DNA of 64,000 nucleotides from Dictyostelium discoideum (taxonomy: Eukaryota): NCBI GenBank assembly GCA_000004695.1, contig CM000151.3, positions 6,144,001 through 6,208,000 on the forward strand, read 5' to 3'. Shown piece after piece: positions 7,790-14,193 of the stretch. The stretch's first letter is position 1; every line of letters starts with the position of its first letter. The translations under genes were made by a program, and so were the position numbers. The notes beneath the pieces are model-generated. The model was not told the origin of the DNA. It did not search any database and saw only the letters and a list, made by a program, of their open reading frames with translations.

Positions 7790-8000
7790 TTAATTTGATA
7801 TCAATATATCCTAATATTTCCATATTTTGGTCATTTATATTTAGAATTTGAAGTGAAGAAAAAGTATAATATTCTTTTATATTTGAAGCCATATATATTT
7901 TTAAATCAATTAATTGAACTAACTTTTTTTAATAATGATAATTGAGATTTTCTTTCAATTGAAAGATATTTAAGACTTTTTGGTAAAACTATATTTTTTC
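7790..8000 (-). pseudogene. FNIP-repeat gene fragment (3'-terminal remnant)
   Basis: About 210 bp match the 3' ends of the FNIP copies at 9366-9800 and 11890-12330 (e.g. taacttttttttaataa[tc]gataattgagattttc.ttcaattgaaag). It has an internal deletion and no ORF. Confidence 0.4.
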
Positions 8001-8384
8001 TACTTTTTTCTAGTTTTTTATTTAACTCTTTTTTTAAAAAATGAAATATTTCTCTTTTTTTTTTTTTTTTTTTTTTTTTTTTTCACCTTCACACGTTTTT
8101 TTTCTATTTACACCAAATCAAATAAAATAGTTTTTTCATTTTTTTTTTTCATTTTATTAATAAATATAAAAATAGAGTACTTAAAAAATAAACGAAATAA
8201 TAAAATATATAAAAAAAATGAATATGACAATTCTCTTTTTTTAATTTTTTTTTTTTTTTTTTTTTTTTTTAATTTTCTATTTTTTTTTTTTTTTCATTTT
8301 CATTTTCATTTTCAATAAAACAAAAAAAAAAAAAAAAAAAGAATTAAACTTTTATTATTAAAAAAGAAATTAATTAAAAAATTA

Positions 8385-9237
8385 TTGGAAGATGAAGAAG
8401 ATTCATTCTTTAAAAATAAAATCGTTTTTAAAAATTTTGTAATTAAAAAAGTTTTTAAAAAGTATTTACAATTTATAAATGTAACCACAGGAAATAATGA
8501 AAATAGTTCAGTTGATCTTCAATCATTATGTACTCAATTAATAAATGAGTTTGGTCATTTAGAATTATCAGTTCAAAAAGCTCAAACAATCTCTGAAACT
8601 TGTACAGATGAAACTTTATATTATCAACAACTAAGTAAACAAAGAGGTATGTTAAATATTATTATTATTATTATTATTATTATTATTATTATTATTATTA
8701 TTATTATTATTATTATTATTATTATTATTATTATTATTATTATTATTATTATTATTATTATTATTATTATTATTATTATTATTATTATTATTATTCAATT
8801 CACTTCAATTCAGTTTGTTTTGTTGAAATTATATATATTAATTATTAAAAAAAAAAAAAAAAAAAAATAAAGAAATTGAAATAGAAAATGAAAAAAAAGA
8901 AATTGCAATTTTAAAAGAAACATTGGATTATGAAAAAAAACAGAGACAATATAAAGAACAATACTTGGCATTATATAAAGCCATTAATGAAAAACCCTCA
9001 ACCGAACAAACTGAAAAAGAAATTGAAAAAGCTCAAAAAGAGTTAAATGAAATAACCGATCAAACAAATAAAACTACCTCAAAATTAGAATTAAGAACCA
9101 AACAATTTCAATTACTTTTACATACTTTAAATGAATTGGAAAAGAATTTAGATGAGTCAATTCCTTTCATTGAAAATAGTAATAATAATAATAATAATAG
9201 TAATAGTGATCAATCAAATACACCTATGGAAAGTTAA
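8385..9237 (+). CDS. thoc7: THO complex subunit 7 (THOC7/Mft1) homolog, 2 exons
   Basis: Exons are 8385..8646 and 8873..9237 (208 aa). The intron carries a ~140-bp (ATT)n microsatellite. The protein is coiled-coil. LELRTKQFQLLLHTLNELEKNLDE aligns to human THOC7 LELRRKQFHVLLSTIHELQQTLEN, and EKKEIAILKETLDYEKKQRQYKEQYLALYKAI aligns to EKIAECKKQILQAKRIRKNRQEYDALAKVI. Confidence 0.75.
8658..8795. repeat. (ATT)n microsatellite inside the thoc7 intron
   Basis: About 46 perfect ATT units. Confidence 0.95.
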
Positions 9238-9365
9238 ATTTTAAAAAACTAAAATAAAATAATAATAATAAGTTATTTGTAAATATAATTAAAACTAAAA
9301 ACAACACTATTAAAAAAGATATTTTATTATTTATCTATTGGTTTGTTAAAATTAAAATTTTTATT

Positions 9366-10250
9366 TTTCATCAATAATAGTGGGATCAACATAACAAAAT
9401 GTTTTAATTTGTTTATCATTTACATTTAGATCTTTAAGTGAGTTAAAAATATAACCTTCCTTAACATTTCCAGCCATATATACTTTTAAATAAACTAGTT
9501 GTTTGAGATTGGTTGAAAAATCAATTAAAGATGAAAATCGTTTAGATTTACCAATTTTTAAACTTTTAAAAAATCAATTTCTTTATTGAATTTATTTCCA
9601 ATATAAAGAAATTCAATATTTTTTGGTATTCTAGGAAGTTTATTATTTAATTCTCTTGTGAAGCCCAAATTTTTTATTGTTTTTGGTATTTTTGTATTTG
9701 AACCACATTCTTCAATTGATAAAAATTTAATTGAAGATTTAACTTTTTTTAATAACGATAATTGAGATTTTCATTCAATTGAAAGAAATTCAAGAATATT
9801 GGGTAAAATTAGATTTTCTCCGATTTTAGTATGATGACCTAATCTTAAAATAATTAAATTATTTGGTAATGCATCATTATCAATACATTCTTTGAATCTA
9901 CTACCAAATTTTATTGAGTTGATTGTGTGGTAAATCACCTTTTGATATTATTAGGTTCTGATTAATTAATATTTCTTTAACTGAATATGGAATTATTCCG
10001 AATGGGATAAAAGCTCCCATTACTTTATCATTTATTTTAGTTTCATCATTTGAAATTACCAAAACTGTTAAATAATTTCATAATGGATATTCTCTTAATG
10101 AATTAAAATTATGTTTAGTTTTATTATGTGCAATATTAAATTTCCTTAAATGATAAAATATATATTTATTCCTTAAATTAACATTTTTCAAAACTTTAAA
10201 AAACAATTCATCATTTTCTAATTTAATTTCACTAAATCTATAAATAAATA
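9366..10250 (-). pseudogene. FNIP-repeat gene, 5'-truncated and frame-disrupted copy
   Basis: It is about 85% identical to the copy at 11892-12835. It lacks the start-codon region and has an extra 18-nt insertion near 9520-9540. The ORF track finds no ORF of 60 aa or more. Confidence 0.55.
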
Positions 10251-11500: not shown

Positions 11501-11891
11501 ACAACAAACAAAGAGTTTATCAAGTTTAAATTCAGTTGATGGAAATAGTATTTGTAGTGGTATTAGTTGAAAATAGTAGATAAAGTACTTCATAGTAATA
11601 GTTTAGGTGTTAGAGATAGTATTGGTAGTAGTAGTAGTTCAAGTGGATCAACAATTTTAAATAAAATCACCAGTTAAATTTTATGTAAATTGCCAAAAAT
11701 CAAATTCAATGACATTGTATATGATAATAATAAACTTAAATATTAATATAAATAATATTAATACATAAGTAAAAATTAAATAAAACTAGAATACTTCCCA
11801 AATTAAATAAAAAAAAAAAAAAAAAAAAAAAAAAAAAAAAAAAACAATATTGAAAAGTTATTTAATTTTTAATTTTCTATTTTATTTATCT

Positions 11892-12835
11892 ATTGTTTTA
11901 TCAAAATTTTATTTTTCATTAACAATACTGGGATCAACATAACAAAATATTTTAATATCTTGATCATTTATGTTTAGAATTTTAAGAGAATTAAAAATAT
12001 AACCTTCTTTTACATTTTCAGTCATATATACTCTTAAATAAACTAGTTTTTTGAAAATCGTTTTGATCTACCAATTTTTAAAACTTTTAAATGTGATAAA
12101 TTTAAAAAATCAATTTCTTTATTGAATTTATTTCCAATATAAAGAAATTCAATATTTTTTGGTATTGTAGGAAGTTTATTATGAAACTCTCTAATGAAAG
12201 CCAAATTTTTAATTGTTTTTGGAATTCTAGTATTTGAATTACATTCTTCAATACACAAAAATTGTATTGAAGACGTAACTTGGTCTAATAATGGTAGTTG
12301 AAATTTTCTTTGAATTGTAAGAAATTTAAGATTTTTTGGTATAATTAAATTATTACTGATTTTGGTATTATGACCTAGTCCTATTTTAATTAATTTTTTT
12401 GGTAACATATCATTATCAATATATTCTTTGAATCTTTGATCGAATTTTATTGATTTGATAGAATCTGGTAAATCACCTTTTGAAATTATTAGATTTTGAT
12501 TAATTATTAATGATACTACAGAATTTGGAATTATTTTATTTGGAATAAAAGCACCCATTGCTTCATCATTTATTTTAGTTTCATCATTTGAAATTTTTAA
12601 AAATGTTAAATAATTTCTTAAAGGATATTCTAATAAAGAATCAAAACTATGTTTAGGATTATTATTTGCAATTTTAAATTTCCTTAAATAATAAAATATA
12701 TATTTATTCCTTAAATAAACATTTCTCCATACTTAAAAAAATAATTAATCATTTTCTAGTTTAATTTTACTAAATGTTTCTGTATCGACTATGAATCTTT
12801 TTAAATATTCATTAATTGATTTATCCATTGTTTTT
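11892..12835 (-). pseudogene. FNIP-repeat gene with a frameshift after codon ~27; a 171-aa internal ORF (12043..12558) remains
   Basis: It starts ATGGATAAATCAATTAATGAA at 12835, like the intact copy. There is a premature TAA after ...KLEND, and the C-terminus also runs into a stop. It is otherwise collinear with the intact gene at 13246..14193. Confidence 0.6.
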
Positions 12836-13245
12836 ATTTGGTAATTCAATTAAGAAATATTAAAAAAAAAAAAAAAAATTTTATTTTGAATAAGTTTTTT
12901 TTTACTGAATTTTTTTTATTAAAATAAAATAAAGAAAGAAAAATAAAGAAATAAAAAAAATTACAAATTTGGTAATAAAATCACCTTTTTTTTTTTTTTT
13001 GATCTATAAATCTTTTTTTATTTTTTTATTTTTACTATTTTTTATTAGATTTTATTCAAATAAAATAAATTATAAATTCTTTGGTTAAAAGATGTAATTT
13101 CGAATGACCCCTCATTTTTTTCTATTTAAAAATTTTTAAAAAAAAAGAAAATTAATATAATTGTTTGAAATTATAAAAAAAAAAAAAAAGATTTTTAAAT
13201 GACAGTTTGTGTATTTTTTATTGTTTATATTTATATTTACTTTTT

Positions 13246-14193
13246 TTAAATATAATTTTTAAGGTCCACAAAACCTTCAAAAATTTCTATTAATTGATCA
13301 TTAAAACATAAAATTTGAAGTGATGTAAAATTATAATGATATTCCAATAAATAAAATTCAGAGTATACTTTTAAATAAATTAGTTGTTTTAGTGAAAGAG
13401 CAATGTCAGATAAGGATTTAAATTTTTTCGATCTACCAATTTTTAAAATTTTTAAATGTTTTAAATCTAAAAAATCAATTTCTTTACTGAATTTATTTCC
13501 AATATGAAGGTATTCGATATTTGGTGGTATTATTGGAAGTTTATTATGAAATTTTGAAGTTAAACCTAAACTTTTAATTGTAGTTGGAATTTTTGTATCT
13601 GCATCACATTCATTAATACCTAAATATTCAATTGATGATGTAACTTGATCTAATAATGATAATTGTGATTTTCTTTCAATGGATAATGATTTTATACATT
13701 TTGGTAAAATAAAATCTTCATCAATTTTAGTATGATATCCCAACTTTAATTTAATTACATTTTTTGGTATCATATCATTTGAAATTAATTCTCTGAATCT
13801 TTTACCAAAAGCTAAGGTATGAATTGAATCTGGTAAATCTCCTTTTGATATTAATATATTTTGATTTATTATTAATAATCCAACAGAATTTGGAATTATT
13901 TTATTTGGAATTGTTGATCCAAAATCTATATCATTTTGTAATGTTTCGTCATTTGTAATTTTCAATCCAGTTAAATAATTTCTTAATGGATATTCTCTTA
14001 AACTCTCAAAATTATGTTTTATATTAAAATTTGCAATTTTAAAATTCCTTAAATGATAAAATATACATTTATTTCTTATAAAAACATTTCTCCAAACTTT
14101 AAAAAATAATTCTTCCTTTTCTAATTTAATTTTACTATTTATTTCATAATCAATTTCTAATATTAATGAAAAATTTTTACATAAAACATCCAT
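13246..14193 (-). CDS. FNIP-repeat-containing protein (315 aa), intact single exon
   Basis: Repeated ~22-aa units carry FNIP-type motifs (IPNSV, IPKNVIKL, IPTTIKSL, IPPNIEYL). This matches the Dictyostelium-expanded FNIP repeat family. Confidence 0.8.
   Translation of the reverse strand: MDVLCKNFSLILEIDYEINSKIKLEKEELFFKVWRNVFIRNKCIFYHLRNFKIANFNIKHNFESLREYPLRNYLTGLKITNDETLQNDIDFGSTIPNKIIPNSVGLLIINQNILISKGDLPDSIHTLAFGKRFRELISNDMIPKNVIKLKLGYHTKIDEDFILPKCIKSLSIERKSQLSLLDQVTSSIEYLGINECDADTKIPTTIKSLGLTSKFHNKLPIIPPNIEYLHIGNKFSKEIDFLDLKHLKILKIGRSKKFKSLSDIALSLKQLIYLKVYSEFYLLEYHYNFTSLQILCFNDQLIEIFEGFVDLKNYI

Follow-up and report, generated by a model that had tools for sequence, protein, structure and literature searches.

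The tgr recognition genes of Dictyostelium discoideum form a tandem family that undergoes birth-and-death evolution (bioRxiv 10.1101/2025.10.22.684067). Here we describe an array of FNIP-repeat genes on chromosome 2 of D. discoideum AX4, with one live and three dead copies, that resembles the tgr family in several respects. Its members are tandem paralogs, orthologs are closer to each other than paralogs are, pseudogenes and deletions differ between strains and probable cryptic species, and the cluster is associated with the translocation of another gene. Unlike the tgr genes, the FNIP array offers no evidence of diversifying selection or of extreme polymorphism. The array lies within a stretch of 64 kb with a GC content of 22%, which we refer to as the window, and a first-pass annotation of the window made from its letters drew attention to it.

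The translocated gene, thoc7, invites a second comparison, with single-gene relocation that is mediated by DNA, i.e., duplicative transposition after which the parental copy is lost. In common with this process, the site of thoc7 that is conserved in outgroups is empty in AX4-like genomes, and the gene has kept its intron and upstream DNA. A difference is that neither junction of thoc7 has an identified transposon, target-site duplication or flanking repeat, the breakpoints being blurred by unalignable AT-rich DNA. As for the encoded proteins, solved examples of FNIP / FGxxFN leucine-rich repeats (LRRs) are Crov588 and Crov539 of CroV, and the literature on FNIP proteins gives general ideas of function only, such as adaptor roles (PMC9525666).

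The locus is very likely an old four-copy array that is decaying separately in each lineage and that received a relocated thoc7 gene. As such, it is a case of ordinary birth-and-death evolution plus one single-gene relocation, and it opens no long-standing question. It does provide a worked example in which one small locus contains intact, freshly killed, heavily decayed, fused and deleted copies, along with a dated single-gene relocation for which filled and empty ancestral sites are both still available.

Age and decay of the FNIP array

Along the minus strand, msh1 (14412-16940) is followed by the FNIP copies, thoc7 (which is on the plus strand) and an acetyltransferase gene, with the fourth copy located beyond thoc7. 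The first copy, c1 (13246..14193, minus strand), has an intact frame of 315 amino acids (aa), matches the Pfam FNIP model (E 1.2e-10) and is identical to the AX4 protein DDB_G0275997 (UniProt Q552L2, “FNIP repeat-containing protein”). When this protein was searched against all 64 kb with tblastn, c2 was matched at 12789..12055 (66% aa identity, E 8e-104), with its tail at 12091..11945 in a different frame; c3 was matched at 10233..9397 in three frame pieces (E 5e-80); and c4 was matched at 8007..7915 (E 1e-5) and 7922..7794 (E 2e-6). Outside c1-c4, nothing in the window scores better than E 0.01. The four collinear minus-strand copies of the first-pass annotation are thus real, one of them live and three dead. 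Scans of the array region for tRNAs and Rfam families gave zero matches at the gathering score.

We compared the array among five genomes of the D. discoideum complex: AX4, ACTFIR (R) and ACTFIW (W), both labelled D. discoideum, and ACTFIY (Y) and ACTFIZ (Z), designated D. cf. discoideum. The outgroups were D. citrinum and D. dimigraforme. In all five genomes of the complex c1 is intact (313-315 aa), and its protein is 90-100% identical among the nearer lineages. The other copies vary. In W, c2 (315 aa) and c4 (302 aa) are intact and c3 is dead, with a -4 frameshift and a ~135-bp deletion; c1 also has 315 aa there, and thoc7 separates c3 from c4. R has a C-terminal frameshift in c2, a dead c3 (a -1 shift and a stop), thoc7, and two frameshifts in c4. 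In Y, c2 reads into a retained c3 tail, the body of c3 and an island discussed below having been deleted; thoc7 follows, and c4 is damaged at both ends. In Z, c2 is intact and only the last ~49 codons of c4 are present, with no thoc7 in the array. Both outgroups have a single FNIP copy between msh1 and the acetyltransferase gene, again with no thoc7.

Two observations on these genomes deserve mention. In Y (L008, at 10001-11139), a deletion extending from the stop codon of c2 into c3 has fused the whole of c2 with the final ~65 c3 codons, so that the annotated 353-aa fusion protein carries a duplicated C-terminal module. In addition, the largest blocks of this region that align between AX4 and R or W (L007 and L009) show only ~89-93% identity, and they include housekeeping genes. 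The reported mean nucleotide diversity within D. discoideum is 0.003 (bioRxiv 10.1101/2025.10.22.684067). Because their divergence from AX4 far exceeds this value, R and W are probably cryptic species.

The first-pass annotation interpreted the copies as a recent tandem duplication followed by pseudogenisation, which would amount to a burst of duplication in this genome. The copies are indeed adjacent, collinear and clearly homologous, and c2 and c3 are 83% identical in nucleotide sequence. However, lineages with 8-14% divergence from AX4 contain an ortholog of each copy at the corresponding position. Pairwise alignment of the copies, proposed at the time as a check, gives nucleotide identities of 68-84% between paralogs, which lie below those of the orthologs: 89-98% for c1, 84-98% for c2, 92-96% for c3 and 91-97% for c4. 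In a neighbor-joining (NJ) tree, sequences cluster by copy and not by genome, and the c1, c2, c3, c4 and (c3, c4) splits have 90-100% bootstrap values. Both c1 and c2 yield the genome order Z, (Y, (AX4, (R, W))). Moreover, synonymous divergence (dS) between the paralogs c2 and c3 is ~0.3-0.4, which is greater than the ~0.1-0.2 between AX4 orthologs and those of R or W. Given that orthologs are closer than paralogs, that the tree groups copies, and that paralog dS exceeds ortholog dS, the array is older than the radiation of the D. discoideum complex. The duplications are old, with only the decay being recent, and we regard the recent burst as barely credible.

The single copy of D. citrinum joins c1 with 99% bootstrap in the NJ tree, which marks c1 as the conserved original. 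Relatives of the family are few. A protein search turned up just 16, each of them from the D. discoideum group, and in an exhaustive HMMER search this locus supplied five of the six representatives that reached E <= 1e-30. That search, which also addressed possible paralogs elsewhere in the genome, found no close one beyond the locus; the next best matches are generic FNIP proteins with 29-34% identity.

To list lesions, each damaged copy was aligned to intact orthologs from the other genomes. The pseudogene c2 (11909..12828, minus strand) was compared with the intact 315-aa ortholog of W, to which it is 92.3% identical in nucleotides. It was previously called frameshifted, and it does have a frameshifting deletion of 28 bp near 12055. 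It also has two nonsense codons, however: GAA>TAA at 12747-12745 (codon 28) and AAA>TAA at 12735-12733 (codon 32). The earlier description of c3 (9361..10265, minus strand) as 5′-truncated and disrupted was half right: c3 is disrupted, but it is a full-length pseudogene whose 5′ end is present up to 10265, where the start codon has been lost (ATG>GTG at 10265-10263). When c3 of AX4, R and W were aligned together, five further lesions emerged: two TGA codons (10080-10078 and 9773-9771), frameshifts of -1 near 10247 and of -2 near 9929, and the loss of 16 bp near 9568.

The fourth copy, c4 (7776..8008, minus strand), is a remnant as had been supposed, yet it is not the simple 200-bp 3′ fragment that was described. 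Local alignments (96-98% identical) to the intact 302-aa c4 of W resolve it into two non-adjacent gene pieces, one (8008-7925) aligning with nt 426-509 and the other (7916-7776) with nt 769-909. An internal deletion of ~250 bp has brought the pieces together at a CAATT microhomology, and all sequence 5′ of them has been deleted. Thus, c2, c3 and c4 each combine homology to a functional paralog or ortholog with frame-disrupting lesions, as unprocessed duplicated pseudogenes do. A search of full-text literature found no paper naming these gene IDs.

The lesions could in principle be assembly or base-calling errors in an AT-rich reference, with the second and third copies really being intact, and errors in homopolymer runs had been raised as an alternative in the first-pass annotation. 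Homopolymer lengths do vary between assemblies, and the AX4 reference seems to contain a bad stretch nearby, at the 5′ end of thoc7. However, an independent assembly of a closely related strain (L001, GCA_054883475.1), which is 99.6% identical to the window over 21 kb, has zero differences from it within c1, c2 and c3, and one single-nucleotide polymorphism in c4, at 7970. Because each lesion in these copies recurs in the independent assembly, the lesions are not homopolymer errors. They are also mostly of another kind: nonsense substitutions and deletions of 2, 16, 28 and ~250 bp, as opposed to changes in homopolymer length. A Logan assembly of reads (L002, run SRR26869256), which extends into c2 by 262 nt, contains the first c2 stop as well. 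We therefore give the error explanation next to no chance. At the position of the second c2 stop (TAA at 12735, codon 32), L002 has AAA, and it otherwise differs from the window at merely 2 further positions in 2629. Since L002 keeps the ancestral AAA, this stop is still polymorphic among close strains, and c2 is still gathering lesions within the species.

In AX4 and in the L001 assembly, c2 is annotated as a gene of 214 aa (DDB_G0275995), and this annotation suggests another alternative: that c2 still works, making a shortened protein by means of a newly used intron and an earlier stop. The model has a Pfam FNIP match, and the ratio of nonsynonymous to synonymous divergence (dN/dS) between AX4 c2 and its intact orthologs is 0.27-0.35. 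On the other hand, so low a ratio is also expected if the gene died recently. The modelled “intron” removes 47 codons (20-66), including both stops, and it takes out a block, FFKVWRN...IF.HL, that is otherwise invariant; no intact ortholog has an intron at that place. The model ends at a stop codon created by the 28-bp deletion, so that the final ~55 residues are missing, and a second stop, still polymorphic, has been acquired, which is what unconstrained sequence would be expected to show. A working c2 is accordingly unlikely. DDB_G0275995 is a salvage model of a pseudogene and, for practical purposes, should be treated as a pseudogene.

The c3 lesions of AX4 are all absent from R and W, which likewise have no c3 lesion in common. 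Together with the intact c2 and c4 of W and the polymorphic c2 stop, this indicates that the deaths of the copies are independent and recent in each lineage. The lesions differ across AX4, R, W, Y and Z, and orthologs being closer than paralogs speaks against concerted evolution, so both features of birth-and-death evolution are found.

The following history would account for these data. The ancestor of the complex would already have had c1-c4, members of a small FNIP/LRR subfamily restricted to this locus, between msh1 and the acetyltransferase gene. They would have arisen by serial tandem duplication with the branching order c1 | (c2, (c3, c4)), c1 being orthologous to the single copy of D. 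citrinum and D. dimigraforme and the one kept intact everywhere. The other three are being lost independently in each lineage through point mutations and both small and large deletions, with at least one deletion, that in AX4 c4, located at a microhomology. In the AX4 lineage c2, c3 and c4 are all dead. Of these, c2 probably died last, given a coding divergence that still has the look of constraint and a stop that is still polymorphic.

Relocation of thoc7

The thoc7 gene (DDB_G0275979 / Q552L5) spans 8385..9237 on the plus strand. Its splice structure, which we set from orthologs, consists of exon 1 (8385-8646), an intron (8647-8872) and exon 2 (8873-9237). Pfam THOC7 (PF05615) matches both exons, at 8385-8650 and 8923-9237, bearing out the identification of a THOC7 gene within the array. 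The accompanying picture of a cluster wrapped around thoc7 is misleading, since thoc7 appears to have been inserted into an array that already existed.

This reading follows from the filled and empty ancestral sites. In D. dimigraforme and D. citrinum, thoc7 adjoins a gene of 722-745 aa, a DsrE-like gene and actin, on contigs other than those with the FNIP locus. In Z, thoc7 has these neighbours as well, the first of them measuring 722-767 aa across the three genomes, and the DsrE-like gene was used to find the ancestral site in Z and in an AX4-like strain. Z retains thoc7 at this site (L015, 16613-17443). In the AX4-like strain (L016), the site consists of a 683-bp gap, on the same contig as L001 and 1.65 Mb from the FNIP locus; tblastn found no trace of thoc7 in the gap. 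The lack of an ACTFIZ THOC7 protein in the database had raised the suspicion that Z lost the gene, which its presence at the ancestral site rules out.

In the two outgroup comparisons, only ~1 kb around thoc7 aligns with the window (8236-9287). Homology of thoc7 reaches ~150 bp upstream of the start codon, and the intron is at the same position in L001, R, W and Y, the lineages of the complex that have thoc7 in the array. Since the intron and upstream DNA were retained, the move was mediated by DNA and did not involve a retrocopy. The distribution of the gene suggests that it was inserted after Z diverged and before Y did. In the proposed event, a segment of ~1.0-1.2 kb, comprising thoc7, its intron and ~150 bp upstream, would have been copied into the c3-c4 spacer from a source 1.65 Mb away on the same chromosome, and the original would then have been lost.

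The 5′ end of thoc7 in the window is aberrant. Of 25 mismatches between the window and L001, 20 fall in a 165-bp stretch at 8339-8502, which covers the beginning of the gene and sequence upstream. On the plus strand, the window has T and L001 has A at 12 of these sites; at seven the window has A and L001 has G, and at one the window has G and L001 has A. Every other genome sides with L001. As a result, the window has lost the thoc7 ATG (TTG at 8385), and the N-terminus reads EDEEDSFFKNKIVFKNF instead of MEDEEESIIRNRIVYKDF, the latter being invariant from D. dimigraforme to D. discoideum. Q552L5, the protein annotated in AX4, bears the odd N-terminus EDEEDSFFKNKIVFKNF and is thus affected by the aberration, whether this belongs to the AX4 reference or to the strain. 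It is probably an error in the reference; otherwise it would be a cluster of mutations in AX4. The sequence ATGGAAGATGAAGAAGAATCAATC... on 8300-8520 in AX4, AX2 or NC4 would point to a reference error, and the reference sequence there to a real mutation cluster that removes the start codon of thoc7.

Long (ATT)n microsatellites occur in the thoc7 intron (8655-8800) and in the island described below (10985-11090). The length of the intron repeat differs between AX4 and L001, and it is much shorter in R and W.

The ORF-less island and its palindrome

The spacer between c2 and c3 contains an island (10740..11700) that lacks open reading frames (ORFs) longer than 56 aa and has the GC content of exons: 0.27-0.31, compared with 0.10-0.13 in the flanking spacers. 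It had been noticed for these properties in the first-pass annotation, which misplaced it between copies 1 and 2. By BLAST, its core (11058-11679) is ~89-90% identical in R and W, where it also has no ORF; the corresponding figure for the pseudogene c3 is 92%. The island thus seems to evolve about as fast as c3, which is consistent with neutrality. Y and Z do not have this interval. Searches of the island by tblastx and blastn against the window and 16 loci found only the orthologous islands and (ATT)n, and a six-frame query stitched together from the island, run against 5.8 billion proteins, had zero matches at E <= 10 among the best 8000 candidates. GC content by codon position weakly suggests that parts of the island once encoded protein on the plus strand. 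Most likely, the island is another piece of captured or decayed DNA, formerly coding, with an inverted duplication inside it.

This inverted repeat (11345..11482) is a near-perfect palindrome of 138 nt, with 67-nt arms and a 4-nt loop; detected as a repeat, its arms are 85% complementary. Its folding energy is -68 kcal/mol (z = -13) on one strand and -74 kcal/mol (z = -12) on the other. A sliding RNAfold scan, which covered the plus strand only, identified it as the most stable 140-nt fold of the window, with -63 kcal/mol against a mean of -15 and a standard deviation of 7. The second most stable fold in that scan, at 48275-48355, results from (ATT)n pairing with (GAT)n coding repeats and represents low complexity, not a structured element.

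DrnB-dependent microRNA (miRNA) hairpins of D. discoideum have folding energies of -0.51 to -0.73 kcal/mol/nt, and one miRNA lies inside a pseudogene exon (PMC6161686 Table S1). The palindrome is comparable to these hairpins in its length and its energy per nucleotide, and the miRNA in the pseudogene exon offers a precedent. This raises the alternative that the island is a functional non-coding RNA locus and the hairpin a precursor of a miRNA or of hairpin-derived small interfering RNAs (siRNAs). The fold is certainly exceptional. Its energy of -0.48 to -0.52 kcal/mol/nt is below the published threshold of -0.2 kcal/mol/nt (PMC6161686 Table S1), is at or just below the weak end of the DrnB-dependent range, and has been kept at similar levels in R and W, where the orthologous palindromes are equally stable. 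However, the arms are not in the supplements of two papers on D. discoideum miRNAs (PMC6161686, PMC11014262), nor in the full texts searched, and Rfam yields only generic miRNA-like hairpin matches below threshold (best 38 bits, gathering score 119). The 10 positions that differ between AX4 and R or W amount to 7%, the same as in the surrounding island and c3, and are not consistently compensatory. Unlike the known hairpins, the palindrome pairs over its whole length in the manner of a fresh inverted duplication. The 15% divergence of its arms fits the neutral decay of an inverted duplication that is about twice as old as the split between AX4 and R/W. The RNA-gene explanation is hence quite improbable, and the palindrome is best read as an inverted duplication that is decaying neutrally within captured or decayed DNA.

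A more elaborate idea would tie several of these elements together: the spacers of the array might be a break-prone site that is repaired time and again with DNA copied from elsewhere, making thoc7, the island and the palindrome captured filler, and the palindrome might be a newborn gene for a hairpin RNA (a proto-miRNA or siRNA gene). We mention it as a speculation that is unlikely to be correct.

The preferred explanation, an old array with lineage-specific decay and a relocated thoc7, also faces some difficulties. Values of dN/dS (Nei-Gojobori, a crude measure at 22% GC) are 0.3-0.55 in live and dead copies alike and fail to tell the two apart. When the NJ tree is rooted with D. dimigraforme, the c2-c4 clade falls outside D. 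citrinum plus c1; either the first duplication came before the split of D. citrinum and was then lost there, or the placement reflects long-branch attraction. The placing of the c3/c4 split before Z is based on identity to a Z c4 piece of only ~140-175 bp. As to mechanism, the copied segment and what remains at the old site may overlap by ~30-40 bp of AT-rich sequence, which weakly hints at copying followed by deletion. A protein could still be produced from the truncated c2 model. Finally, the source of the island was not found in the searches described above.

The FNIP subfamily and other features of the window

Pfam FNIP (PF05725) scores c1 at 41.7 bits and the c2 ORF at 57.8 bits, with a cut-off of 21, and all 11 family members scanned are above this cut-off. 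The relationship to FNIP / FGxxFN LRR proteins extends to structure. A profile of the family matches Crov588 (6nyr_A; E 3.3e-63, in 12 stretches) and Crov539 (7zal; E 9.8e-14) in the PDB. An AlphaFold2 (AF2) model has an LRR core at residues ~60-260, where the predicted local distance difference test score is mostly 75-95, apart from two 10-residue blocks at 54-69; the termini have low confidence. With this model, Foldseek returns Crov588 as the top match (E 3e-6). The predicted core contains ~8 beta-strands, at 106, 126, 148, 169, 190, 208, 228 and 249, with a spacing of 20-22 residues, i.e., apparently a solenoid of ~22-residue repeats with one short beta-strand each.

The subfamily nonetheless differs from described members. 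The c1 family is very short (~315 aa, with ~8-9 degenerate repeats), and Pfam recognizes only one or two of the repeats. On visual inspection of the alignment, only one repeat comes near the FGxxFN motif (FGKRFRE...IP), the remainder being degenerate (LGYHTKI..., IGNKFSKEI...). The proteins also have a conserved N-terminal block, ELFFKVWRNVYLRNK.IFYHL, that has no Pfam match, with no F-box detected by Pfam. Moreover, within the D. discoideum group the subfamily occurs at this one locus only.

Elsewhere in the window, the sole Rfam or ARAGORN matches are a tRNA-Val(AAC) at 18013-18087 (minus strand) and a tRNA-Arg(TCT) at 43314-43386 (plus strand). In D. dimigraforme (L011), a 544-aa gene and an AAA-ATPase gene are located upstream of msh1 and inverted. 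In AX4, this pair is downstream of the acetyltransferase gene, and a local rearrangement has therefore taken place beside the FNIP locus.

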